A stretch of DNA of 64,000 nt from a virus (Duplodnaviria; Heunggongvirae; Uroviricota; Caudoviricetes). The DNA is taken from IMG/VR virus record IMGVR_UViG_2974563859_000001; one strand, given 5' to 3'. The stretch's first letter is position 1. Every line of letters starts with the position of its first letter. The notes under the pieces are model-generated. The model had not been told where the DNA came from. It saw only the letters and a list, made by a program, of their open reading frames with translations, and made no database searches. The position numbers and the translations under genes were made by a program. Below are positions 4,243 through 61,617 of the stretch, piece by piece.

Positions 4243-5016
4243 TTGAATTGGTTTAAAAGAATGTTTATGGCAAAGGAGAAGGATAAGGAAATTGATTCAC
4301 TAAGAAGGATGGTTGAACAGAGTAATGAAACTATTAAACTCATGGATGGTGTCATAAAAAGATTAGAGGATAATATGACTAAATCCAGACAAGAATCAGC
4401 AGCAACTCTTCAGGAAGAAAAAGAATATCAAGATCAAATGAAATTGGAATCAGAAAGGATGCGGGAATATGAATATATTCAAAATGCTCAAAAAGTTGTT
4501 TCTACTTATTTAACTAAATATCTAGATCGTTTTAATCTAATTGAAAATCGTTTTTCACTTGCTCATAATATAGATCTTCTTTCTAATTCTGATGACTTAA
4601 TGTTTAAAATTGTACAAATGATTAAATTGTCTAAGACCAGTGTTGAATTTGCTACTGTTTGGAACAATCATGTTATAAGAATTAGTATTGATAATGATGA
4701 AGATGATGTATATTATAGTATTAATGGTGGAAAAAATCTAAGTTCCGACATTGTAGGAACCAAATTTCTTACTAAATTTAAGAAGGATATCCAATTAGAT
4801 ATATTGAATTTTCCATGTGTTCAGACAAATAAGATTTATGAAGTAACTGGTAAGAAGTACAAGTATGTCTTAGCTAACTCAAGAAGAGAATGTTATTATA
4901 TACTTAAAGATAAAGAGATGAAAACAAAAATAAAAGAAGTTAGTTTTGTTGAACCAAGTGCATATACACGTTCTATTAGATCTAGACTAGTATATGTAGT
5001 ACCTCATCAAACTTAA
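4243..5016 (+). CDS. hypothetical protein (TTG start)
   Basis: RBS ggggagg 7 nt upstream; 257 aa, no recognisable domain. Confidence 0.55.
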   Translation: MNWFKRMFMAKEKDKEIDSLRRMVEQSNETIKLMDGVIKRLEDNMTKSRQESAATLQEEKEYQDQMKLESERMREYEYIQNAQKVVSTYLTKYLDRFNLIENRFSLAHNIDLLSNSDDLMFKIVQMIKLSKTSVEFATVWNNHVIRISIDNDEDDVYYSINGGKNLSSDIVGTKFLTKFKKDIQLDILNFPCVQTNKIYEVTGKKYKYVLANSRRECYYILKDKEMKTKIKEVSFVEPSAYTRSIRSRLVYVVPHQT

Positions 5017-5024
5017 TGCTATAA

Positions 5025-5059
5025 GAGTAAAGTCTATAAAAGACTTTACTCTTTTTTTT
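5025..5059 (+). terminator. rho-independent terminator
   Basis: gagtaaagtct-ataaa-agactttactc followed by a T8 run. Confidence 0.6.
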
Positions 5060-5060
5060 G

Positions 5061-5413: not shown

Positions 5414-7303
5414 CAAAATCTTCCAGTAGATTCGCTACATCTACTGCGTTCTCTTATGAACTGCTCTATATTACTATAGAGATGAGACTATATCTTCACA
5501 ATATAATTGTGCCCTCCGTTTCCATTTAAAGAGGAATTATAACCTTATTACGGAATACCTCTACCGCTTGGCTGTACTCTACTCCCTTCCTTCTAACTAG
5601 CGTTATCACAACGATCTGTTAGAGTGGTTTCGATAGTCGTTGAACCTTCATCTTTAAATGAATTAAAGATGCTTGGATGCTGATTGTCCATATAGGATTT
5701 TCCAGCAGTTAAAAGGGTTTTACTACGACAGTAGATTATTATCTTTTATAGGTAAATACTAAATTACCACAATCCCATATTCTTTTAAATCTAGTTTTAT
5801 CCATGATTTCAAATTCAGTACTATCATCACTATATAATTTTGGAAATTTCTTTTTGAGATTAGACTTTCTATAATTAAATCTATGGAATCGTTGAGTTTT
5901 TTCAACGTTAACATACCAATAGTTGGGTTTACTAATATGACTTAATTCAAATTTATTATTGATATAAACATTGCCATCTGACCAGCGTTTATCTGCATAG
6001 GTTATTAATTCTTTCCACTCATAATTTCTCTCGAAGTATTTGAGAAGTTTACTAAAAGCACCTATTACTCTATAGTCCATATCGGTAGCGAATCTTGATA
6101 GTTCAAAAATATTATCAGCACTATTTCTACCTAGGCTTTTTCTAAGTTTACTAAAAGTCATTACCGCTACAAGTTCATCGCCATCTTCTTTTGGAAGCCA
6201 TAAGCCTAATTTAATTGATGACAAATCTTTTCCCTGAATGTGATTTCTTTCTAGGAATTCATTTTTAAAATTGTTATCAATTACTTCTACATAACAATTT
6301 CTAGCGTATATTTTAGTAGAATTATTTAATTTTAGTAGGTGTTTTATTTTTTCTTTTACTATGAGAGGTTTGTTAACCCATTCGTCTTCAAAAATTTGAA
6401 TTAGTCTAATCCCTTTACTATTACATTTTTCTAATTTTTCTAAATGATAGTTTCTTTTCTTCCCCATTTGCTCTGAATGCCAATATAAACCATTAAATTC
6501 AAAAGCAATTTTTTTGGAAGGAATAAATATATCAATCTCTTTACCTTCAAGTAATTTCCTGTCATTACATATGACTTTATCTACAACTAATCCTTTAATA
6601 AAAGAAGATAGTTCTTTTTCCATTTTTGATGAACTTTTAAATGCACAATATGGACATCTATTTCCATTATCAAAGTTTTTAATTGTAACTTCATACTCCT
6701 TATTACAACTATGATGTAACAATCTAATCTTCGTTTTATTATTACGATATTCACCTAATAATGAATACTCATTATTTGTAACTAAGCTAATTTTTCTTTT
6801 AACCTCATCAGTAGTTAGTCTTCTTTTACCAGAACATTGAGGACATCTATTTTTCAAAGCATAATAAGGAGTAGTCTTCCATTCATAATTACAGTCATTA
6901 CATCTGAAAAGTATTTTGGTATCGATATTGATATATTTCTCAAGACTTATAAGTCTTCCATTAGTCTTTTCTTTTAATTCCTTCTTAAACTCATCATTGC
7001 TTTTTAATCTTGATTTACCTTTATTAATATCAGCGCACTGAGGACATCTTCTACCATTATGAAATACATCAGGTCTAACCTCATATATATTTCCACATAA
7101 TTCATGCCTTAATTTGATTTTAGTCTTATTGTTAATATATTCATTGGATAAAACTGTATAGGTATTGTTAGTTAGTAATTTAACTTCTTCTTTGAATTCG
7201 TCCAGTGTCTTTTTATGTGGCATACATTAATACCTCCAAATAATTAATAATTATTTGTTTATTTGACACTGTATTCCCTTAAAAAGAAATAATATTAATT
7301 TTT
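5414..7303 (-). mobile_element. group I intron (phage IA2 / td-like core) carrying homing endonuclease ORF 5739..7223
   Basis: Core blocks AACGACTATCG and GAAGATATAGTCTCA plus the shared 3' tail agagcagttcataagagaacgc...gtagcgaatct. IGS gtcgtagt pairs the exon end actacgaT with a U-G pair at the junction. The junction splits the catalytic motif: D-Y-D | G-D. Confidence 0.6.
5739..7223 (-). CDS. homing endonuclease: N-terminal repeated zinc-finger modules plus C-terminal Vsr/EDxHD-like (DUF559-type) nuclease domain
   Basis: Repeated Y..L.EY.N..TKI...H..C...Y...P..F..G.RCP.C modules. C-terminal IAFEFNGLYWHSE. Paralogous to 7576..8493 and 34288..36051. Confidence 0.65.
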   Translation of the reverse strand: MPHKKTLDEFKEEVKLLTNNTYTVLSNEYINNKTKIKLRHELCGNIYEVRPDVFHNGRRCPQCADINKGKSRLKSNDEFKKELKEKTNGRLISLEKYINIDTKILFRCNDCNYEWKTTPYYALKNRCPQCSGKRRLTTDEVKRKISLVTNNEYSLLGEYRNNKTKIRLLHHSCNKEYEVTIKNFDNGNRCPYCAFKSSSKMEKELSSFIKGLVVDKVICNDRKLLEGKEIDIFIPSKKIAFEFNGLYWHSEQMGKKRNYHLEKLEKCNSKGIRLIQIFEDEWVNKPLIVKEKIKHLLKLNNSTKIYARNCYVEVIDNNFKNEFLERNHIQGKDLSSIKLGLWLPKEDGDELVAVMTFSKLRKSLGRNSADNIFELSRFATDMDYRVIGAFSKLLKYFERNYEWKELITYADKRWSDGNVYINNKFELSHISKPNYWYVNVEKTQRFHRFNYRKSNLKKKFPKLYSDDSTEFEIMDKTRFKRIWDCGNLVFTYKR

Positions 7304-7489
7304 ATCGTAGTCTCCGCCTAAAGCCTTTAAATAACCATTATAAGGAATTACTGTATCAACAAAAAGTTCATCCTCTGCGGGATAGTCAGGGTATATAACA
7401 GGATAATCAGGTAAGTATCTATCTTCCAGCTTTTGAGGTCGTGTTTCCTTTGTTGAAAGAATTCTTATTTTACTTGGATAAATATTCTA
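7304..7489 (-). CDS. RNA polymerase beta-prime N-terminal gene, internal exon (...IPYNGYLKALGGDYD)
   Basis: No ATG/GTG/TTG in frame. Ends in the DYD of the universally conserved NADFDGD motif. The 5' boundary is approximate. Confidence 0.45.
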
Positions 7490-9032
7490 TAGTGATAGGT
7501 AAAGATTTGATTTTATCTCCTCTTTTTCCCCCACTTCACACCCTACGTGCGACTTTCATCGCATAAGGCGTTCCATCAATTTAATAAAAATTTTTTAATA
7601 AGAATTGGTATACTATCGATTGGTGTATCATATTTAATTCTAAGAATTGGTAAATTATATTTCTTACAAAAATCATTTTTAATATTATCATGTTTTTGTA
7701 TTAATTCTAATTTTTTAATACGGTCATTTTCATCGTTACCAAAGATAGGAAGAAAATGTTGTCTACCATCATATTCTATTATAGCATTAAATTCCTCTAC
7801 AAAAAAATCAAAAGGTAAGGGTTTTCTATCTTTACATTCTTTAAAAGTTTTTTGATAGGTATATTCTGTTCCCATATTATTTAAAATATTTTTTATTAAT
7901 AATTCCCCACTACTCATTTTACAGTTTTTACATGAAAATTTATTAGATGTAATATTTTTTAATGAAAATTTATTAATAGTATTACACTCTAAATGTATTA
8001 TTTCTAATGGAGTTACATTATTTATATACTCACCAATCACTTTATACTCATTAGGATTTATTTTGTCTAACTGTTCTTGAACATATTCTTTATTTTTCTT
8101 AATAAGTCCTGAACAGTTAGGACAACGTCTCCCTAGAGATGTAAAATTTCCTGCTTTGACTTCATAAATGAATTTACATTTATTATGACGCATTGTTACC
8201 TTAGAATGATAATTTTTATAATTAGACAAAACAGTATATTCATCTTTTACTAATTCCTTAACCTTATTGATAAATTTTTCTGTAGTTAACTTTTCTTTTG
8301 AATTACAATGAGGACATCCATAACCCTGTAATAAGTTACAAGGTCTTGCCTCAAATTCTTTATTACAAATTTCATGTAATATTAAAATTTTTGTTTTAGA
8401 ATTAATATATTCACCAATTCGTTTGTAACCTTTTAGTATTTGATTTAGTCTTAAATCAAATGAAGTATTATCCAATTTTCTCATTAAAATCACTCCACAT
8501 AACTATTTATTATTATGTTTTGTGATTGTTCGATTATTTTTATTAAACTGACTATGACCCTTCGCTCCAATGGAGTTACCCATCTTCATAACTACTATGG
8601 TCTGCTGACTTTCTATATAAGAGTATCAACTATAATTTCTCTTATATAGAATCTCTGACGTTCCGTAAATGATAGTATAGCTATAACTTAGATGCCTTCT
8701 GCCCTATATAAACTTCTATTGTACCACACTTTACAATCAGGTCGTTCACCAGTACCGTATTACTAAACCCTGAATTTATATAGTATAAAAAGGTTCGTGT
8801 TCCTCATCATATTATAGCACCGCCCACCCTATCTATTAGTATTATAGTACTACTAATATTCAGATGACTTCACCTAACTTCATACAAATATTTTATATAG
8901 TTTAAAATAGATGCATGTAGGAGTATTAGCGACAAGTCTTCAATGAAAATGGTCATATCTTTTACTTGTTCTCATTTACAGTTTAGATTATAAAATCTAC
9001 TCCATTTCACATTAAATGCTTATAGGAGAACG
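7490..9032 (-). other. intervening sequence (putative intron of a different class) containing homing endonuclease ORF 7576..8493
   Basis: The beta-prime frame is broken by a stop at 9033-9035 and resumes at about 7489 without a start codon. The 540-nt segment at 8494-9032 is GC-richer and hairpin-rich. It lacks the td-like core blocks. Confidence 0.3.
7576..8493 (-). CDS. homing endonuclease paralog (zinc-finger modules + EDxHD/Vsr-like, IIEYDGRQH)
   Basis: Same architecture as 5739..7223. Confidence 0.6.
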   Translation of the reverse strand: MILMRKLDNTSFDLRLNQILKGYKRIGEYINSKTKILILHEICNKEFEARPCNLLQGYGCPHCNSKEKLTTEKFINKVKELVKDEYTVLSNYKNYHSKVTMRHNKCKFIYEVKAGNFTSLGRRCPNCSGLIKKNKEYVQEQLDKINPNEYKVIGEYINNVTPLEIIHLECNTINKFSLKNITSNKFSCKNCKMSSGELLIKNILNNMGTEYTYQKTFKECKDRKPLPFDFFVEEFNAIIEYDGRQHFLPIFGNDENDRIKKLELIQKHDNIKNDFCKKYNLPILRIKYDTPIDSIPILIKKFLLN

Positions 9033-33599: not shown

Positions 33600-34114
33600 T
33601 GGAAAAGAAATCTGTAAAAGATTTATTGAAATTAAGAATTAGTAAAATCTCATTAGATAATGAATTTAGCAAAATAAATGAAGATGATATCGAAAAAATT
33701 ACTAATGAAATTCTTGATAATATTGATAAAACAATATTAACTAAACATGATTTTGATCATTATTTAAGAAATAATGTAAATCCTCATATTATTGATGATA
33801 TTGTTCTAGAAGCAATAAAAAAGTATCTATATGGGACAATAAAACCATATTATACACCAGATACTAAAAACTATGTATTTTTACTATTAATGAACAATGG
33901 AACCTACGAAAGAGATTTTGATGAATCTGGTATTGGATATTCAGATGAACAAATTGAGAAAAATGAAAATCTAGCTGTTTTAAAAACATTCTTAACTATT
34001 ATTAGTCTTGAAACAATCACTGGTGGAGAAGAGAATGTTGAAAAGCATGTTAAGCAATTAATGAAAGATTATGGAGTAAGTAGAGATAGAATAAAGCATT
34101 TTTCTATTAATTAA
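33599..34114 (+). CDS. hypothetical protein
   Basis: 171 aa. Confidence 0.45.
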   Translation: MEKKSVKDLLKLRISKISLDNEFSKINEDDIEKITNEILDNIDKTILTKHDFDHYLRNNVNPHIIDDIVLEAIKKYLYGTIKPYYTPDTKNYVFLLLMNNGTYERDFDESGIGYSDEQIEKNENLAVLKTFLTIISLETITGGEENVEKHVKQLMKDYGVSRDRIKHFSIN

Positions 34115-34127
34115 AGGAGGATTATCA

Positions 34128-34271
34128 TGAAATTTAAATTAACTGACTTACAAGGAAATAAAATCATGACTTATCATGCAAATAGTAAAACTGAGGCTAC
34201 TAATTATTTTAGGAATTATTTAAGTACAATAGGTAAAAACCTTAGAGGACTAAAAGTAATTGGGGAATAAT
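34128..34271 (+). CDS. small protein (47 aa)
   Basis: RBS aaaggagg; MKFKLTDLQGNKIMTYHANSK... Confidence 0.35.
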
Positions 34272-34275
34272 AAAT

Positions 34276-34318
34276 AAAGGATAGAGACTAAATATCTCTA
34301 TCCTTTATTTTTTTTTTT
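34276..34318. terminator. bidirectional terminator
   Basis: aaaggatagagac-taaat-atctctatccttt followed by a T11 run. Confidence 0.6.
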
Positions 34319-36051
34319 GTATACTCAAAGACTAAATTTCCACAATCCCAAATTCTATCATAACCAGCTTCTCTCATAATTTGAATTTCTGTTTTATCAT
34401 TACTATAAATTTCTGGAAATAATTCTTTTAATCTTTGTTTTCTATAGTTGTATCTATGTGAAAGACTCAATTTATTTTTATTAAAATACCAATAATTTGG
34501 CTGAGAGTTATGCATAAAGTGAAAGCTATTTTTATGATATACATTTCCTTCTGACCATCTTAAATCAGCATATGTTATGATTTTATTCCAATCATAATTC
34601 TTTTTAAAATAACTGAATAATTTTCCAAAACTACCTATTACATTATAGTCTCTTTCTGTAGCAAATCTACTTAATTCATAGTCATATTTATTCCCTTTTT
34701 GCCCTAAGCTAACTCTAGGTTTACAGAATGTCATTACTGCTACTAACTCATCACCCTCATTCCTTGGATACCATAGTCCCAGTTTAATAGTAGAGTTATC
34801 AGATCCTTGAATATGATTTTTATCTAAAAAATCTCTTTTCACATTATTCTGAATTTCTTCTATATAACATTTTCTAGCATATATTTTTTCTCCATTATTT
34901 AAACCTAAAATATGTTTTATCTTTCCCTTTATAAGTTCTTTATTATCAATCCACTCATTCTCAAATAAATGAATTAATCTTATACCCTTTTCATTACATT
35001 TTTTCAATTTATTTAAATGGTAGTTTCTATCTTTTCCTTGAGATTCACCATGCCAATATAAACCGTTATATTCAATTGCTATTTTCTTTGAAGGTATATA
35101 AATATCCAGTTCTAAACCTTCAAGTATTTTTCTGTCTGATAGAATTACATTAGTGCTATTGGGGAGAATTTGTTTAATATAATCATATAATTCAATCTCA
35201 TCTTTTGAATTATGTTTCTTTAGTTGACATCTAGGACAATCTCTTTTAACTTTTTTACCTCTTGAATTACCATGTAAAATATCGACCGGTCTAACCTCCC
35301 AAGAATAGCCACATGAATGCTCAATAACTATTGGAGTTTTATTATTAATATATCTACTCTTAATTGTATAATCATTACTATTAAATATTCTATAAAAATC
35401 TTCTTTAAAACCATTAGATCCTTTATTTTTTGGATTTTTATTACATATATTACACCTTTTTCTTTTTAGGAAATTAGTTGGTGTAATAAAGAAATTATGA
35501 GAATCACTAGTATTGTGTCTCATCTCAATTTTATCTTGAGAGCTAATATATTCTCCTAATACAGTATATTCATCTCCTACTAAATCATACACTTCTTTAA
35601 TAAACATTTCAGTAGTCTTTGTCTTTTTCCTTTTTATTAGTTTCTTAGTACAATCAGGACATCTTGAACCCTTACTGAGAAAGTCATTAGGTCTTTTTTT
35701 AAACTCCTTATTACAGATGTTATGTCTAAGTAATACTAGTTTAGAACTATTAATATATTCTCCTAATACAGTATATTCATCTCCTACTAAATCATACACT
35801 TCTTTAATAAACATTTCAGTAGTCTTATTTTTTCTTTTAGATATTCTCTCTGATTTATGTAAAGGACATCTATTACCTGCATTTAAAAAGCCATTTGGTG
35901 AGACATAGTATTCATGACTGCACTTTTCATGTTTCATTTTTATTTTATTATTAGTTCCAGTATATTCTCCTAATACAGTATATTCATCTCCTACTAAATC
36001 ATACACTTCTTTAATAAACATTTCAGTAGTCTTTTTAGGCAAAACAATCAT
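34288..36051 (-). CDS. free-standing homing endonuclease paralog (three zinc-finger modules + EDxHD/Vsr-like nuclease)
   Basis: Three near-identical modules: KTTEMFIKEVYDLVGDEYTVLGEY...CP.C. C-terminal IAIEYNGLYWHGE. Confidence 0.65.
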   Translation of the reverse strand: MIVLPKKTTEMFIKEVYDLVGDEYTVLGEYTGTNNKIKMKHEKCSHEYYVSPNGFLNAGNRCPLHKSERISKRKNKTTEMFIKEVYDLVGDEYTVLGEYINSSKLVLLRHNICNKEFKKRPNDFLSKGSRCPDCTKKLIKRKKTKTTEMFIKEVYDLVGDEYTVLGEYISSQDKIEMRHNTSDSHNFFITPTNFLKRKRCNICNKNPKNKGSNGFKEDFYRIFNSNDYTIKSRYINNKTPIVIEHSCGYSWEVRPVDILHGNSRGKKVKRDCPRCQLKKHNSKDEIELYDYIKQILPNSTNVILSDRKILEGLELDIYIPSKKIAIEYNGLYWHGESQGKDRNYHLNKLKKCNEKGIRLIHLFENEWIDNKELIKGKIKHILGLNNGEKIYARKCYIEEIQNNVKRDFLDKNHIQGSDNSTIKLGLWYPRNEGDELVAVMTFCKPRVSLGQKGNKYDYELSRFATERDYNVIGSFGKLFSYFKKNYDWNKIITYADLRWSEGNVYHKNSFHFMHNSQPNYWYFNKNKLSLSHRYNYRKQRLKELFPEIYSNDKTEIQIMREAGYDRIWDCGNLVFEYTKKKIKDRDI

Positions 36052-36061
36052 CCTTTATATA

Positions 36062-36105
36062 AAATTGGATTTCAACTATTATTTTGTTTAGTTGAAATCC
36101 AATTT
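36062..36105. terminator. hairpin between the beta gene end and the endonuclease gene
   Basis: aaattggatttcaac...ttgaaatccaattt. Confidence 0.45.
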
Positions 36106-36120
36106 GTTTATCAAAGAAAA

Positions 36121-37251
36121 TTATTCTGAATATATTTTACCAATTTCTCTCTTAAGATGAACTAAAGCTTTATTTAAATACAATGCATTGTAAATATCAA
36201 CGGTCATGCGTGAAACGATACTTAATGGACTCATAATGGCTTCAATATTCTCATCTGGATCATTCTCACTAAAAGGCTCTTGATCTTTAGGAATAACATC
36301 AGATACAATTGTTTTAAGTGCTGTATAATACGTAATCTTATCTCCAATACCAAGTTCATCATCATACTCAATATAAATCTCAATGAGTAGTCCATCTACC
36401 TCAGTACCTTTAATTTTCTCACCTGATTGCTTTTGAATAGGTTTAAGATTAACAGAAGTCAGATCATTAGTAACAGACTTAATCTTATCTTCTTTCTTCT
36501 TACTATCTTTAATATAGTTCTTCAGAATCTTTTGTACTGAAGGAGAAAACTCACTGATATCTTTATTGTAGTACATTACAACATCTACAATCTTACCAGT
36601 ATATTTAGAACTTACTTTGTTCTTAGATAACTCATTAATAGTCTCATTAAAGTCATCTCCTAGTTTATCTAAGAGTTGGTTGAGTGATTTATCTTCAAAA
36701 GAGTTTTCAAAGATAATCAGTGGATCACCAGTTTTAACCATATCGCCTTTCTTAACAATAAAGTCAATGTTTGAGTTAACTCCAAGAGCAAGTTCTTTCT
36801 TCATAGTAATCTTAGTAGATAGGTCTTGAGATAAGCTTTCTGTGATAATACTACTATCTTCATATGTGTAATCTGCGCTTGCTAGTGCTACTTTACAAAG
36901 CTTCCCTGTAGTATACGTGATATCATCTTTCTTATCGCCAAGGAAATAACTTGGATTCTTCGCTAGGATATCATCTTTTTTGAATTTCTCTCCTACTTTG
37001 ATAATGAGTTCTTTACGATTGGAAATATAGAAACCACCATTACTGTTCTTACTCATATGCTCGGAGAGATCAATGACGTCTTTCTTACCATCATTATAAC
37101 GAACGACAGCTAACTCATGTTCTTCATCTATGGACTCTAGAACTCCATCTTTTTTTGCTCTAAACACAAAGTCGTCACTTAGAATGTAAGCGACAGTCTT
37201 CTCTACACCACTACCAAATAGAGGTTTAGATTGCTTTGTGGTAGGAATGAT
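36121..37251 (-). CDS. RNA polymerase beta N-terminal gene, exon 5 (IIPTTKQSKPLFGSG...PSRM...)
   Basis: Aligns to E. coli beta AVPTLRADKPLVGTG...GDKMAGRHGNKGV...GVPSRMN. The frame is open upstream of the GTG that the ORF track used as a start. Confidence 0.65.
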   Translation of the reverse strand: MIPTTKQSKPLFGSGVEKTVAYILSDDFVFRAKKDGVLESIDEEHELAVVRYNDGKKDVIDLSEHMSKNSNGGFYISNRKELIIKVGEKFKKDDILAKNPSYFLGDKKDDITYTTGKLCKVALASADYTYEDSSIITESLSQDLSTKITMKKELALGVNSNIDFIVKKGDMVKTGDPLIIFENSFEDKSLNQLLDKLGDDFNETINELSKNKVSSKYTGKIVDVVMYYNKDISEFSPSVQKILKNYIKDSKKKEDKIKSVTNDLTSVNLKPIQKQSGEKIKGTEVDGLLIEIYIEYDDELGIGDKITYYTALKTIVSDVIPKDQEPFSENDPDENIEAIMSPLSIVSRMTVDIYNALYLNKALVHLKREIGKIYSE

Positions 37252-37611
37252 CGTTAACTTCCATTAGATTCGCTACGTCTAATGCGTTCTCTTATGAACT
37301 GCTCTATATTTCTATAGAGACGAGACTATATCACTATCCTTATCTATTAAGGATAACCCCCATTTCCATTTAAGGGATTCTCACCCACTCCAATCGCTTG
37401 AGCCGTACTCCTATTGCGGAATTTCACCGCTACTCACAATCCTAAGATTGCTTTCGGATAGTCGTTGAACCTTCATTGTTATTTATAACAATGCTTGGAT
37501 GCTGATTGTCCATATATCCTTTAGATTGTTACACTTTGGTACTAAAGGCTTTAGGATTTTCCAGCAGTTAAAGGGTTTTGCTAGCAATATTACTACTACT
37601 AGGCACGAATC
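37252..37611 (-). mobile_element. group I intron (td-like, no ORF) in the beta gene
   Basis: ctttaactgctgg, caacgactatcc, gatatagtctcg and the tail ...gcgaatctaatggaagttaacG. Confidence 0.55.
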
Positions 37612-37788
37612 ATGCTTTTGCTGCGTTGTTTGCATTCCAACGCGCGGTGGGTCGGCATGACGAGCAGTAAAGGAGTTTAATAACTCTGCCGGACCATAGA
37701 TATTTGTCGTATTATTTTTTGTATTAGGATTGGTGTCTAAGAATCCTCGTGTGTTTTTGAATGCTGGATCAAAAGTTAACTGTCTAAC
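37612..37788 (-). CDS. RNA polymerase beta gene, exon 4 (VRQLTFDPAFKNTRGFLDT...FTARHADPPRVGMQTTQQKH)
   Basis: GC-rich island. GFLDT matches GFLET. ARHADPPRVGMQTTQQ matches EHDDANRALMGANMQRQ. Confidence 0.55.
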
Positions 37789-38837
37789 CCATTACCTTCA
37801 TATAGGTTCGCTACACCTATACCGTTCTCTTATGAACTGCTCTATGTTACCATAGAGATGAGACTATATCTTTATCTAGTCAAAAAAAAAGAAAGGAGAT
37901 GACTAGATATCTCCCATTTCCATTTAAGGGATTCTCACCCACTCCAATCGCTTGAGCCGTACTCCTATTGTGTGTTAACCACTAAAGGATAGTCGTTGAA
38001 CGTTACTCTCGTTATAATTAAAAATAATTTATAAAACCGTTTTTCTCAGCAATTTCTTTTCTAAAAGTAATTGCTAGTTCTTTAGCTTTTTCAAAACCAT
38101 ATTTATTAACTGCAAATGTTTTAATAAATTTTTTATGATTAACACGGATTTCAGATTCCCATCTATTTTTCTTTTTAGAATATCTTATTCCTTTAATTCC
38201 AGAAGTATTATCGTTTCTTAGTGATGTATTTCTATTATTCATCATTTGAGAAACCTCACGCAAATTACTTTTTCTATTATTTAAACTATTTCTATCTATA
38301 TGATCAATTACATTATTATTATCTTTAATATCCATTAGGTATCTATGAAGCTTTCCACCTGAATTACTTGAAATATAAAATGAATTATTTCTTTTAGACC
38401 AGATAGCTCTCCAAACATGCTTATTTATTTTATCAATATCTTCAATATCAATTTGAGATTTTACGATACCATATGTTTTTGAAAAAGTAACTAATAATGC
38501 ATGATCATCTAATACTTCAATAAAATTATATGCTCTTTTTCCTTCTTTTAATGTTTTCATAGCTATACGCTCACTATAATCTCCATATAAAACTTCTGAA
38601 TAATGTGCAAGGGAATTTGATTTCTTTTCTTTATTATAGAAACTTACTCTCCATAATTTTTGTTCTTTTAGATATATTATTTTATTTTTTTCCATAATAG
38701 TAGCTCTCCTTTTTAACTTACTACTATTATAATATATATTTAACGAGAGTCTTCGATACGGATTGTCCTATTATTAGGAGTTTCCCGTAGTTAGAGAGAT
38801 TTTATCATTATATATCACTATATAAGGGGGCAGTTTA
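37789..38837 (-). mobile_element. group I intron with HNH-AP2 homing endonuclease (38018..38695) inserted in a stem-loop
   Basis: Stem ctctcgtt/aacgagag flanks the ORF. The td-like 3' core lies at 37789-38010. Confidence 0.5.
38018..38695 (-). CDS. HNH homing endonuclease with C-terminal AP2 DNA-binding domain
   Basis: IDHIDRNSLNNRKSNLREVS (HNH) and GIRYSKKKNRWESEIRVNHKK (AP2). RBS aaggagagc. Promoter-like motif on the minus strand at 38728-38741. Confidence 0.7.
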   Translation of the reverse strand: MEKNKIIYLKEQKLWRVSFYNKEKKSNSLAHYSEVLYGDYSERIAMKTLKEGKRAYNFIEVLDDHALLVTFSKTYGIVKSQIDIEDIDKINKHVWRAIWSKRNNSFYISSNSGGKLHRYLMDIKDNNNVIDHIDRNSLNNRKSNLREVSQMMNNRNTSLRNDNTSGIKGIRYSKKKNRWESEIRVNHKKFIKTFAVNKYGFEKAKELAITFRKEIAEKNGFINYF

Positions 38838-38852: not shown

Positions 38853-39187
38853 CATTATCTTCCACTAGATTCGCTACATCTAATGCGTTCTCTTATGAAC
38901 TGCTTCATGTTACCATGAAGATGAGACTATATCATCATCCTATTAGGATGCCTCCCATTTCCAACTCCAATCGCTTGAGTTGTACTCTACTCCCTTCCTT
39001 CTAACTAGCGTTATCACAACGATCTGTTAGAGTGGTTTCGATAGTCGTTGAACCTTACTCTAATGAGTCTTGGATGCTGATTGTCCTTAAAGGATTTTCC
39101 AGCAGTTAAAGAGGTTTACTTATAATATTTCTATTATAAGGGACTATTATAAATCTTGTCTGGGAATTCAAGAATTATAATAATTCA
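38853..39187 (-). mobile_element. group I intron (td-like, no ORF)
   Basis: Complete core: ctttaactgctgg, caacgactatcg, gatatagtctca and the tail gtagcgaatctagtgg. Confidence 0.5.
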
Positions 39188-39265: not shown

Positions 39266-39649
39266 CGTTTTCCTTCATATAGGTTCGCTACACCTATACC
39301 GTTCCTTAGAACTGCTCTAAGTTTCCCTAGAGACGAGACTATATCATCACTTAAAAGTGCCTCCCATTTCCAGCCTCAATCGCTTAGACTGTACTCTACT
39401 CCCTTCCACTAACTAGCATTATTGTAATGATCTGTTAGAGTGGTTTCGATAGTCGTTGAACCTTTACCTTATTACAAATAATTTGTAACTTAGGTACTTG
39501 GTTGCTTATGATTACCCAATCCTTTAAATTTTTACCATACCTGAATTGTTATATTCAGCCATCTATTATGTTTCCATATAGATTTGGTATTAAAGGCTCT
39601 AAGGGTTTTCCAGCAGTTAAAGAGGTTTTAATTGGACTAAAACACTTTA
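39266..39649 (-). mobile_element. group I intron (td-like, no ORF)
   Basis: Begins taaagtgttttaGTCCAATtaaaacctctttaactgctgg. IGS gtccaa pairs the exon end ttggaT. Confidence 0.55.
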
Positions 39650-42445
39650 ATCCAAGTTCCTTCCTGAAAGCCCCTTGTAAGTAGCCGCACCACCCTTTTC
39701 AATTTCCAAAGAAGGGTTAAGGACACTATATTCATCGACAGTAGGTGAATTCATTAATGTCTTTAATAGAATATCCTGTGGAACAGACATCTTAATAGGA
39801 TTACCAGCTTTCAGTGTATCCTTATACGTTTTAAATGAATCTGCCAAGATTTTATACAAGTAGGCGTTTACTTGCTCAGTACCACGGATTCGATATGAAT
39901 TCATATCATTCAGTGGACTATAGCTCATATCTTCCAATAAGGTATTCGCATACAACAATATGTCATAGATATTCTCAGGTAATTCTAACTGTTTCAGTAC
40001 ATCTAATGTGATAGGATCAACCATTAGAGATAGAGTATTATGGAGACCTTTACCCATATTTCTGCTACCAAACATCTCATAGAAAGTTTCAATATAAGGA
40101 TCTTTAGAGTTCATTTCTTCAAATGTATACTCTTCAGTAGCCATAGTACTTAGACCACTTAATAATAAGGAATTTCTCAATAAAGAATTATTATAATATA
40201 GGTATCCATCTTTAAAACGGATCTTATCATAGTCATCATCAATTGTAATTCTCTTATTCTTAGTATCAAAGCTATATTCAATATTATATCTTTCTAATAA
40301 ATCTTCTAATCCTAATTCATATCCAAGAAGAACCACTAAAGGAATCATTCTATTATTAATACGAACTCGGTTATATGCTAGAGACTTAGAATTACTTAAA
40401 GAAGATAATTTTTTATAAGCTTCCTCACTAAGTGAAGTAACAACAACTTTAATAATGAGTTCTGAAAGACTCATATCAGTATTTTCTTGTTTCTTATTAT
40501 TAATCAGATAAACTCTTTTACTTGAACGCTTAAGAGCAATAACATTTTCATTATCTTTTGTATGACCGATTGGTAAGAATTGTTTATCATCAATATTAAT
40601 CTTAGCAAGCTTAGCCATATTATCAAGATCACTTTTCAATAAATCTTCTACTTCTTTTTGACTGAACATAAGTTTATATTCATCATTCTCTAAGCTTAGA
40701 AGGAAGGAAGAGATTTCATTATATTCAAGAGTTGTTTCATATCCCTCATTAATTGTTAGAGCGTTACCTAGACGATAATTAAACTTCTTACCTGATACTT
40801 TAAATTCATTTAGATCCATACCAAAAAGCTTCTTAAGTTTCTCAGTTTTATGAGATAGCTTAGAACCAAAGCGCATGACAAAAAACTTATTGTAGTTAGT
40901 AGTAATCTGAACTTCATCAGGTTTTGTTTTTACAATGGGTAAAGATAGAATTTGCTTAAGAATTAATTTTTTACCACCATTAATATTCATAAACCTACCA
41001 TCTCTGATAATAGGATAATCAAATTTAACAGTATGCTTTACATTACGATCATCTTGGAAAGTAACAGTGTAAGTTAATTTCTTTGATAAATCAGTAGATG
41101 TGTCTTCTGTTTTAATATCACTTACAAATAATTTAACATCGCTATCTCCATTAAATGATGAAAGAACTGCAACTAAGTCTTTTTTCATCTGTTTCTCAAA
41201 GTAGCTCATATCAAAATCTTTAAGATTTGAATATCTAGTTTCTTCTTGAATAACATTTGTATTGGTAATTGGCTTTCGGTCAATACTTGTTGATTTAAAA
41301 TCATCAATAATATCTTGAATATTAATATCATCAAGAGTAACTTGTTTTTGTTTTTCTTTTAGGCGTTCAAGAGTCTTTCTCTGTTTAATTTCATCTCCAC
41401 CAGTAGACTGAAGCTCTTTAAGAGTTGAAACATCAGCTTTTAATTCCTTACTGTTATTTAAGATATCAATGATTTCATCTTCACTTTTATCAAGAATATC
41501 TTCATCACTTGAATCAATAGCTTTTTCAATATCATCACCAATCTTATCAGTAACTTCAATTGCACTACTGGATAATTTTGTATTTCCATCAATTTGGAAA
41601 TTACTTAATAATTTTTCTTTAACTTTTTCAGATTTTTCTTTTACTAATGCATCTCTCTTGTTTTCTGTTTCTTGAGTTGCATCTTCTTTACCTAAAGGTT
41701 TTTCATCATTATTAGTCCTCTGATGATTTGCTGTTTTAATAAGAATATTTAATGCATTAAGGAATCTATTTGCAAGAAGATTAGAAAGTTCATCATTAAT
41801 ATTGAATTTAATAAATGTATTATTAACTGTAGTATAAAAAATAAAGTCTACATTCTTAAGCTCTTTCTTCTGTTCCTCTGTTAACAACTTTCTTTTAATT
41901 GCCATATAGATATAAGCAAAAGGTGTTCTTGCATTATTTAAGTCAAAGAATGATGGATCAAGAACATTGTCAGGAACAGGAATTGCTACTGCTTTATTCT
42001 CATATGATGCGCCCTCTTTAATTTTAGATATAAGAAACTCAAAATACATTTCAACTCGTTTTCTTCCACGAACTTTAATCTCTACTTCATTCTCAAGATG
42101 CTCATTTGTAATATCATAGATCAAGTTAAGATCATTATAATTAGTTAAAGCACGTTTAGTATAAATAATACTGGAGCATTTTGCTTTTACCTCATCATAA
42201 TATTTCTTTTGATCTACAATAATTCTTTTATTCTTTTGAACAGTATTGAATGCTCTTGGAATATATACTCCTCTAAAAAAAGAAGGACTGAATATATTAG
42301 AATTAATAAAATCAAATATTTCACTTTGATTATTTCCTGAAAAGAAAATCAAATTTGAATTACGGTCATTTTTCCTTTTTTTAATGGATGAAAGTTTTAT
42401 ATTAGAGTACACTCTCAATTCCTTGAGATTATCAAGATAAAACAA
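39650..42445 (-). CDS. RNA polymerase beta N-terminal gene, exon 1 (TTG start)
   Basis: Ends ...NPSLEIEKGGAATYKGLSGRNLD, matching [20 protein letters not shown]. RBS aaggaagtggg. Confidence 0.6.
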
Positions 42446-60150: not shown

Positions 60151-61176
60151 ATGGCAGATGAACAGCAAAACGTTGATGAACAACAGTCACAGATAATTGG
60201 AGATGAGTTTTTCCAAGAAGGTAACTCTAATTCAGATTCAAAAGGTGGATTTGGAACAAGTGTAGAATATACTGATGGTTTTGAAGCGTTAATTGGATCT
60301 TCTAAGGGTGGTTCTGGTTCTTATGCTACACCTACATGGAATCCATATAAATCAGATAGTGTATTAGGCTTACCTTTATACTACAATGATTTAGCGGATC
60401 CTTCGGGAAGAGTATACAATCAAACCATTATTCAAGATATTCCTAATATATACATGGTTCCCGGAATTCCATCTATTAATAGAAATATGATTGACGTAGC
60501 AGGAAAACGTATTATTCCTGCTACTCTTTCTCGTGCATTAATGGATTTTCAAAATAATCCAAATAGTATTTTTAATTTTGGAGTTAGAGGAGTAAAAAGT
60601 GGTAATGACCTTCGTTTCATAGGGTTTAAAGCAGATTATTCTGAATACTTTAAATATGTACAAACTATGTTAAGTACTATACATTCATATATGGCAATGG
60701 ATGGCATATTTGATTTATATAGATTCTCAGATGACTTTAATAATAGTTTTAAAAATTATGGATTATGTTTTTATGCAGATAAATCTACAACTATTTCTGA
60801 GTCAGCTGATAATACTTATGCGGCTTCTAGAACAGCAGAAATGGTAAGTGAGAAAGCGGCTACTTTAAGGGAAGCAGATTTATTATATCCTACAGGAAGT
60901 ACAACATCTCGTATTGTTGACTCAATTAAAGCGGCTAATCCAATTGGTGTACTAGAATCATTAGGTTCATTTGATGGAATTATCACTCGTACATCAAATG
61001 CATTATTTCGTGTTGTAAATGGATCACAATTAATGTTCCCTGACTTTTGGCAAGATTCTAGATTTGATAAATCTTATAATATTAGTTTCAAATTTTATAG
61101 TCCTTATGGTGATAGAGAAAGTATATTTAGATACGTGTATGTACCTTTTATAGCACTATTAGCATTAGCATTGCCT
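60151..61176 (+). CDS. virion structural protein gene, exon 1
   Basis: The ORF ends at a T followed by intron-initial taa. Intron IGS gggcaat pairs the exon end attgccT. Confidence 0.55.
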
Positions 61177-61617
61177 TAAATGACGGGGCAATTAAAACTC
61201 TTTTAACTGCTGGAACATCCTTAGAGCTTATTAGACTACAACGTGACTGGTGACAGTGAGCGTGAATGTTTAAAAACTAATAAGATTGGACAATCAGCAA
61301 CTAGTTAAAACTTCCACATGGAAGTTACTAGCTCAACGACTATCGAAACCACATCATTTGATGGAAGGAAGTAGAGTACCCCACAAGCGTGGTTACATTT
61401 AGGCATAAATGTAAGTATAGTAAACTAATACTATATGGGAAACAAAGAGCATGATGAAGGCAAAAAGCTGGAGTGAAGATATAGTCTCAACTTCTATGGA
61501 AACATAGAGCATGATGAAGGCAAAAAGCTGGAGTGAAGATATAGTCTCAACTTCTATGGAAACATAGAGCAGTTCATAAGAGAACGCACTGAAGTAGCGA
61601 CTCAGTGGAAGGTTATG
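61177..61617 (+). mobile_element. group I intron 1 (td-like, no ORF) with internal 60-nt tandem duplication
   Basis: taaatgacGGGGCAATtaaaactcttttaactgctgg ... caacgactatcg ... gaagatatagtctca ... gcgactcagtggaaggttatG. Confidence 0.55.

Follow-up and report, generated by a model that had tools for sequence, protein, structure and literature searches.

Hef and Hef-like proteins are free-standing homing endonucleases, reportedly described by Sandegren and coworkers in 2005 from T4-like, ViI-like and Campylobacter phages (see PMC3296691). Here we analyze a gene of this kind, gp077, which lies on the minus strand of a 64,000-nucleotide (nt) stretch of viral DNA, IMG/VR record IMGVR_UViG_2974563859_000001, referred to below as the window. 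The window is Bacillus phage PBS1, its positions 34000-38800 matching MF360957/NC_043027 at 100% and phage AR9 at 98.5%. In CapR of PLE, the founding member of the family of zinc module that makes up the N-terminal part of gp077, sequence-specific DNA binding depends on four cysteines, and the similarity of CapR to the AR9 and PBS1 endonucleases has already been pointed out (PMC8096241). Mom of phage Mu, which the C-terminal part of gp077 resembles, is a stand-alone enzyme of ~240 amino acids (aa) that transfers glycine from Gly-tRNA to adenine N6 (PDB 8bv8; PMC7261163, PMC13219725). We conclude that gp077 is very probably a free-standing and still mobile homing endonuclease gene of the Hef/Vsr-like (EDxHD-related) kind, situated in the intergenic gap that follows the final exon of the virion RNA polymerase (RNAP) beta gene, and it is best filed as a Hef-type free-standing homing endonuclease.

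Given the Hef-like annotation of AR9, the fusions of Mom with restriction endonucleases (2021), the CapR modules (2021) and the CapR plus EDxHD/Vsr architecture (2025), the novelty of such a gene is low. A first-pass annotation, made from the letters of the window, had read gp077 as a homing endonuclease with a modular DNA-binding array; that idea is not new, the enzyme type being present in AR9 annotations and the architecture, for the paralog in the window, in PMC12350094, and as originally worded it matters little, with gene, family name and architecture all to be found in GenBank and in the literature of 2011-2025. New here are the corrected coordinates and module count, the recognition that gp077 and its paralog gp033 combine all three domain types, the conservation of residues of the Mom-type active site, the precise limits of the insertion, the promoter, silent changes whose clustering marks a candidate target, and gene conversion, rather than recent duplication, behind three identical 73-nt segments.

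The gp077 gene and its nuclease

34288..36051, minus strand: gp077 coding sequence, 587 aa from the ATG at 36051 (the GenBank start is the TTG at 36042)
34897..35199, minus strand: Vsr/EDxHD-type nuclease domain (aa 285-385), with conserved E314, D316, E327, N329, H334, H345 and K348

Several lines of evidence place gp077 among the Hef-like enzymes. Immediately 3′ of the final virion RNAP beta exon (36121..37167), the gene runs towards a convergent set of plus-strand genes whose end is at 34270. It matches phrog_559 (E=1.8e-167) and phrog_3339 (E=1.9e-106), and from aa 275 to aa 587 it is colinear with Hef-like or homing endonucleases of Acj9, CP220, NCTC12673, Dickeya phages and others, at 33-45% identity over 89-98% of the length. 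By tblastn, 419 phage records contain a unit consisting of the nuclease and the Mom-like domain, many of them with a Hef-like or homing endonuclease annotation, and a single genome can hold as many as 12 copies; 378 of these records, among them the Acj9 'putative Hef-like homing endonuclease', cover at least 80% of aa 275-587. The AR9 ortholog, g188, is annotated 'Hef-like homing endonuclease', as is AR9 g146, and g147 is annotated 'VSR'.

A Vsr-type (PD-(D/E)xK-derived) nuclease fold is predicted for gp077, and similarity to the catalytic domain of I-Bth0305I is found both by phmmer (E=1.4e-5) and with a profile of 65 homologs (E=3.3e-7), which bears out the nuclease proposed in the first-pass annotation. 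The (I/F)EYNG..H motif on which that proposal was built is present (E327, N329 and H334 in gp077), but its C-terminal placement holds only for gp034, the second paralog in the window, since about 200 aa follow the motif in gp077 and gp033. Across the 65 homologs, which share 45-60% identity, D316, E327, H334, H345 and K348 are invariant, and D316 and H334 are the counterparts of D196 (metal ligand) and H213 (general base) of I-Bth0305I. The E-D-x-H-D set is incomplete, with D316, H334, E314 and E327 present. The domain identities of gp077 can be regarded as established.

RefSeq calls the gene product a 'homing endonuclease', GenBank an 'HNH endonuclease'. We reject the latter label (MF360957, phrog_559), because gp077 has no HNH match in Pfam and its nuclease is Vsr-like. 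The same label is attached in MF360957 to both 34288-36042 and 7576-8484, as well as to phrog_559, despite the lack of an HNH motif or a Pfam HNH match, and it appears to be a propagated annotation error. A search of gp077 against NCBIfam returned noise only, with Vsr at E=0.097.

Mobility and the candidate target

34319..36120, no strand assigned: mobile segment of 1802 nt (promoter, hairpin, endonuclease gene), delimited by comparison with Goe21
36077..36088, minus strand: late promoter AACAAAATAATA (AACA-N6-TA), identical to the region of the AR9 g188 primary transcription start site mapped by dRNA-seq
36064..36103, no strand assigned: inverted repeat with 13-nt arms ATTGGATTTCAAC / GTTGAAATCCAAT, between the RNAP beta stop and the endonuclease start, with the promoter in its loop
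34266..34316, no strand assigned: bidirectional terminator hairpin, an inverted repeat with 22-nt arms that are 91% complementary, placed with the help of Goe21
36150..36212, minus strand: candidate target/immunity region, marked by synonymous differences 30-92 nt from the virion RNAP beta stop codon

Evidence for mobility comes from close relatives of PBS1. The mobile segment is present in PBS1, AR9 and Internexus, and in place of its 1802 nt Goe21 has 9 nt, ACATGCTTA, flanked by the terminator's T-run and the RNAP beta stop codon. The flanks of PBS1 and Goe21 differ at about 0-3 positions per 100 nt (~97-100% identical), and this establishes a presence/absence polymorphism of a free-standing gene between close relatives at one precise site. 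The terminator hairpin is common to phages without the gp077 gene, and this hairpin and its T-run contain the final ~10 codons of gp077 together with its stop codon (34288-34318). The T-run consists of 11 T in PBS1, where the protein ends in ...KKKIKDRDI, and of 10 T in AR9, where the stop follows ...KKK; thus, a change in homopolymer length sets the C-terminal tail of gp077 and g188. A small open reading frame (ORF; 34127-34270) found ahead of the terminator in PBS1, AR9 and Goe21 is missing from Internexus (Internexus locus 5001-5060 against 34100-34290), whose left flank is much more diverged than the others; to its left, the insertion is therefore bordered by a mosaic created by recombination.

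The gene also carries its own means of expression. AR9 g188 has a mapped primary late transcription start site with AACAAAATAATA, which agrees with the late consensus AACA-N6-TA, and its transcript abundance is 2.7, 99 and 400 at 5, 20 and 40 min (PMC5312081 and its supplement), so that expression is established for the ortholog. Judging from the identity of the AR9 sequence, transcription of gp077 would start at 36077 and leave a 26-nt leader before the ATG at 36051. The inverted repeat that encloses the promoter is probably a terminator for the upstream gene.

To locate a possible target, we compared 900 nt of the last RNAP beta exon in PBS1, AR9, Internexus and Goe21. Every difference is synonymous, leaving one and the same protein sequence in all four phages. 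Within the first 100 nt beside the insertion, AR9, Internexus and Goe21 differ from PBS1 at 9, 10 and 5 positions, respectively, as against 0-3 differences per 100 nt over the next 800 nt, which establishes a synonymous cluster. Four changes at positions 79-91 from the stop codon set Goe21, which lacks the gene, apart from the three carriers. Variation of a target site and co-conversion give rise to silent changes clustered in this way beside a free-standing endonuclease gene, and the sequences are consistent with a role of this region as the target. Of the two haplotype blocks in the interval 36150-36212, not both track whether a phage carries the endonuclease gene. Scanning IMG/VR yielded no further alleles of the 3′ end of RNAP beta.

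Zinc modules, identical heads and the Mom-like domain

35830..36036, minus strand: zinc module 1 (aa 6-74), from the module hidden Markov model (HMM), a Pfam CapR match at aa 24-63 and an AF2 model
35623..35829, minus strand: zinc module 2 (aa 75-143), from the module HMM and a Pfam DUF4379 match at aa 101-137
35416..35622, minus strand: zinc module 3 (aa 144-212), from the module HMM
35200..35415, minus strand: zinc module 4 (aa 213-284), from the module HMM (E=1.2e-15)
35961..36033, minus strand: exact 73-nt repeat, copy 1, by exact search
35754..35826, minus strand: exact 73-nt repeat, copy 2, by exact search
35547..35619, minus strand: exact 73-nt repeat, copy 3, by exact search

Counting with the module HMM gives four modules of ~69 aa in gp077 and three in each of gp033 and gp034; the two to three modules of about 65 aa noted previously are too few for gp077. 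Each module consists of an alpha-helix and a strand, the 'head', followed by a zinc-knuckle 'tail', and very basic linker helices join the modules. Pfam matches together with four zinc ligands per module assign the array to the CapR/DUF4379 group. The ligand pattern of the family, H..C...C..C, is kept in modules 2 and 4, module 2 having the canonical set H110, C113, C131 and C134. The candidate ligands of module 1 are H41, C44, C62 and H65, where CPLH replaces CPxC and the final Cys is a His; in module 3 the first Cys is replaced (HNTSDSH) with two His nearby, and the candidate ligands are H179, H185, C200 and C203. Module 4, which adjoins the nuclease and has no 73-nt head, is 53-56% identical in nt to modules 1-3 and is an older, diverged module.

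By the HMM count, family members have between 0 and 14 modules, most often 4. This is the variation that the first-pass annotation had proposed to look for, and it makes modular evolution plausible; retargeting through gain or loss of modules was a suggestion of that annotation. Some of the homologs P0002, P0005, P0033, P0066 and P0090 consist of nearly nothing but modules, up to 14 in a protein of 1011 aa, with no nuclease after them, and other such relatives have 5-11 modules followed by a ~110-aa nuclease or a DUF2726 domain. Several of the module-rich relatives are encoded on Bacillus and Paenibacillus chromosomes.

A triplicated 73-nt segment had also been reported in the gene. It is real: the three copies have zero mismatches, where the chance expectation is none (0 of 100 shuffles gave a match), and their spacing is exactly 207 nt, or 69 codons, rather than about 208 nt. 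The intervals first assigned to it (35550-35622, 35756-35828 and 35966-36038) were shifted by 3, 2 and 5 nt and so out of register and not mutually identical. The repeat structure given here was taken from repeat finding, alignment and exact search; Tandem Repeats Finder, run over 33800-36500, found nothing, because the copies are too diverged outside the heads. The segment encodes KTTEMFIKEVYDLVGDEYTVLGEY, which corresponds to helix 1 and strand 1 of each module (from AF2 for module 1). Twort-like phages of Staphylococcus and SPO1-like phages of Bacillus have DNA 77-87% identical to it in endonuclease genes carried by introns, and the head is the most conserved stretch family-wide.

The three identical copies at an exact period would suit a recent tandem triplication of whole modules, as the first-pass annotation held, and whole-module duplication does occur in the family, since modules 2 and 3 of homolog P0048 are identical throughout. 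For gp077, however, this origin is scarcely tenable, and so is an assembly artefact. Identity among modules 1-3 is limited to the first 73 of 207 nt; the other 134 nt are only 50-57% identical in nt and 27-30% in aa, less than the 44% aa that two modules of one protein share on average in the family, and these tails are no closer to each other than to module 4 (53-56% nt). The same layout of three modules plus one, with the same tails, is found in AR9 and Internexus, and the triplication is therefore old and predates the split of PBS1, AR9 and Internexus. As to an artefact, which had been named as a possible undoing of the repeat, two independent PBS1 assemblies (MF360957 and LC680884) are identical base for base across gp077, and AR9 and Internexus share the layout. 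A 545-nt length difference seen in the second PBS1 assembly was rejected as a by-product of joining repeat matches, the gene there being identical. We also rejected a diversity-generating or hypermutation origin of the tails, which are ~98-99% identical between PBS1, AR9 and Internexus; a difference of ~1-2% between phages argues against rapid diversification.

We favor gene conversion instead. At head site 38, modules 1, 2 and 3 read T,T,T in PBS1, A,T,T in AR9 and A,A,T in Internexus, and at head site 47 they read A,A,A in PBS1 and G,G,A in both AR9 and Internexus. Variants common to different copies in different phages are unexpected from independent mutation and point to short-tract gene conversion. 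Thus, concerted evolution of the heads is established, and their identity is better explained, on these sequence patterns, by intragenic gene conversion than by recent whole-module duplication, PBS1 being the fully homogenised state. The same mosaic occurs in homologs P0105, P0012, P0048 and P0004, whose heads are identical within a protein and lineage-specific between lineages. The head is likely a structural scaffold that is held uniform, with the zinc-knuckle tails carrying the differences in DNA reading.

The remaining third or so of gp077, which the first-pass annotation had missed, is a Mom-like GNAT domain:

34291..34896, minus strand: Mom-like GNAT domain (aa 386-587), by alignment to Mom
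Mu Mom H58: gp077 H413
Mu Mom R111: gp077 R462
Mu Mom D149: gp077 D496
Mu Mom R151: gp077 R498
Mu Mom Y159: gp077 Y505

The predicted fold is that of GNAT proteins, with Mom as the top structural match and the closest solved structure. Residues 388-587 give no match to the Pfam Mom HMM (PF25680) at E<=0.01, and PF25680 matches 10 of 65 homologs at E<=1e-3 (P0070 at 31.1 bits against a cut-off of 27.1); hhalign of the domain profile against a Mom alignment gives E=6.6e-5 with a probability of 64%. The five aligned residues above, out of seven in the Mom active site, are each at least 90% conserved among homologs. Of the other two, Mom Y59 aligns to I414, and S124 falls in the loop VIG(S/G)F(G/S)K, where no conserved Ser can be assigned. 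Relatives of the domain number 15,643 at E<=1e-3 among 1.84 billion cluster representatives, and they nearly always form the C terminus of the protein.

Rival readings, paralogs and known systems

From these features we propose the following course of events. The gp077 gene would be transcribed late from its own AACA-N6-TA promoter. The four-module array would contact a long stretch of DNA, within which each diverged tail would recognize a sub-site of its own, and the Vsr-fold nuclease would make the break, probably as a dimer by analogy with I-Bth0305I. In a mixed infection the enzyme would cut a related genome without the gene, most likely within the last ~100 bp of the RNAP beta gene, and recombinational repair from the carrier genome would then copy the 1.8-kb segment along with flanking markers. 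The C-terminal Mom-like GNAT domain, retaining most of the Mom active-site residues, is the third part of the protein.

Some observations weigh against a working homing endonuclease. Cleavage and homing by gp077 or its AR9 ortholog are inferred, as are the position of the target and the function of the Mom-like domain. In the gp077 clade the invariant H345 stands where the EDxHD motif has its final acidic residue (D222 in I-Bth0305I, D97 in Vsr); the clade therefore departs from the strict EDxHD motif, its chemistry may differ, and NAR 2025 (PMC12350094) calls it an 'outgroup' of EDxHD. The zinc ligand sets of modules 1 and 3 are non-canonical. At positions 30-64 from the RNAP beta stop codon, nine changes split PBS1 and Goe21 from AR9 and Internexus rather than the carriers from the non-carrier, and, with one genome without the gene available, the target inference rests on four sequences. 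PBS1 DNA carries uracil in place of thymine, and gp077 would have to cut such uracil-containing DNA.

These points might be taken to indicate a domesticated or decaying endonuclease, which only binds DNA, for example as a transcription regulator like PLE CapR, or has lost its function. CapR is indeed a domesticated relative of the same module, modules 1 and 3 are each without a canonical cysteine, and a His stands in place of the terminal EDxHD Asp. We nonetheless regard domestication or decay as highly improbable, since PBS1, AR9 and Internexus have almost the same ORF, with all 587 aa intact, and the gene has its own promoter and late expression. Furthermore, H345 is invariant together with D316, E327, H334 and K348 in the 65 homologs and is thus a feature of the clade rather than a sign of decay, and absence of the gene from Goe21 means that it is not an essential regulator.

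A different reading gives the Mom-like domain the leading part. For fusions of Mom with restriction endonucleases in jumbo phages, Iyer et al. 2021 proposed a conflict system akin to restriction-modification; applied to gp077, the Mom-like domain would modify adenines of the phage's own DNA and the nuclease would attack unmodified DNA of the host or of competitors. The retained equivalents of H58, R111, D149, R151 and Y159, the position of Mom as the top structural match and the very large size of the domain family all speak for it. Against it stand the precise 1.8-kb presence/absence difference between near-identical phages, the synonymous changes clustered beside the insertion, the paralogs inside self-splicing introns and the coexistence within one genome of several copies whose DNA-binding arrays differ; moreover, an array of four modules implies a long, rare site, unlike that of a restriction enzyme. 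We therefore consider it distinctly unlikely that gp077 serves primarily in conflict, and favor a mobile homing endonuclease. The two readings are compatible, as a homing enzyme could use its Mom-like domain for self-immunity.

This compatibility leads to a bolder and tentative hypothesis, which we hold to be possible although on balance unlikely: that Hef-type enzymes are two-enzyme proteins in which the Mom-like domain covalently modifies an adenine in the enzyme's own recognition site, with a zinc array that evolves in the manner of TAL or PRDM9 arrays. If this were true, adenine would be modified, possibly by way of aminoacyl-tRNA as in Mu Mom, so that the carrier genome would be chemically immune and naive genomes would be cut. 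The protein would then unite a homing endonuclease with a restriction-modification system in one polypeptide chain, which would explain how free-standing enzymes tolerate target sites in their own genome, and the array scaffolds would be homogenised by gene conversion while the recognition halves diversify. Hef-type enzymes are widespread and the Mom-like active site is apparently intact; if it is active, DNA hypermodification would join the homing toolkit.

The window encodes two further members of the family:

5739..7223, minus strand: gp033 (494 aa), with three modules, nuclease and Mom-like domain
7576..8493, minus strand: gp034 (305 aa), with three modules, a shorter Vsr-like nuclease and no Mom-like domain
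7489-8986, minus strand: group II intron (Rfam D1-D4 at 8813-8986, D5/D6 at 7489-7573)

Both are paralogs of gp077 with the same module array, as the first-pass annotation had recognized; they are 51% (gp033) and 34% (gp034) identical to it and, like it, match phrog_559, with E values of 1e-154 and 1e-76. The gp034 gene lies between D1-D4 and D5/D6 of the group II intron, where the position of domain IV holds gp034 instead of a reverse transcriptase, and gp033 adjoins a group I intron. Both introns lie within the virion RNAP beta′ gene, for which AR9 annotates three joined exons. NAR 2025 (PMC12350094) describes gp034 in the group II intron and the 'homologous' group I homing endonuclease gene (HEG) gp033. 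A full-length group I intron match (84 bits; 5464-5775, minus strand) overlaps the last 37 nt of the gp033 ORF, which places the ORF 5′ of the ribozyme core and not in an internal loop.

Other introns were seen beyond these. Between the two annotated pieces of the virion RNAP beta gene, four separate Rfam group I intron matches lie on the minus strand at 37302-37621, 37840-38032, 38903-39162 and 39315-39692, together with an HNH-AP2 endonuclease ORF (38018-38695). For this gene AR9 annotates six joined exons and the PBS1 records only two separate coding sequences, the small exons being unannotated in PBS1. One more group I intron match (56 bits; 61156-61509, plus strand) lies just after an ORF at 60151..61179.

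Within one phage genome this endonuclease family thus occupies three niches, being found in a group II intron, beside a group I intron core and as a free-standing gene, and the genome is a small-scale natural illustration of how genes of this kind pass from one niche to another. The identical heads, the diverged tails, a natural allele without the gene and a candidate target of ~60 bp make gp077 a tractable system for studying how zinc modules read DNA, which bears on the design of new modular nucleases.

Among described systems, the Hef-like genes are like gp077 in being free-standing, in lying beside conserved genes and in being multi-copy within a genome; gp077 has four CapR-type zinc modules at its N terminus, and its likeness to Hef-like proteins was measured over aa 275-587 only. 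The HEGs treated in PMC12350094 have 3-5 CapR/DUF4379/DUF723-like domains of ~60 aa before an EDxHD/Vsr nuclease, as gp077 does, but they are borne by group II introns and have only a nuclease of ~100 aa after the modules, whereas gp077 is free-standing and has a Mom-like domain in addition; the passages of that article consulted mention neither the Mom-like domain nor gp077. I-Bth0305I, the prototype of EDxHD (PDB 3r3p; PMC3239194), is related to gp077, which is not a strict member of that family. Unlike gp077, it is intron-encoded, binds DNA with two NUMOD/HTH motifs rather than zinc modules, has its nuclease at the C terminus and no Mom-like domain, and possesses D222 where gp077 has His345.

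PLE CapR and the CapR-domain homing endonucleases of ICP1 contain the same family of zinc module (Pfam PF21817) as gp077, yet CapR has no nuclease, and the ICP1 proteins join the module to a domain of the T5orf172/GIY-YIG type, not the Vsr type (PMC8096241). In contrast to Mu Mom, the domain of gp077 is part of a multi-domain protein, falls below the Pfam Mom threshold and has Ile at the position of Y59. Finally, zinc-finger nucleases, TALENs and TAL effectors bind DNA through tandem small repeats, joined in the engineered ones to a nuclease, with a uniform scaffold and a varying sub-part. The module fold of gp077 is unrelated to theirs and no DNA code per module is known for it, so that the likeness to these arrays is a functional one only.

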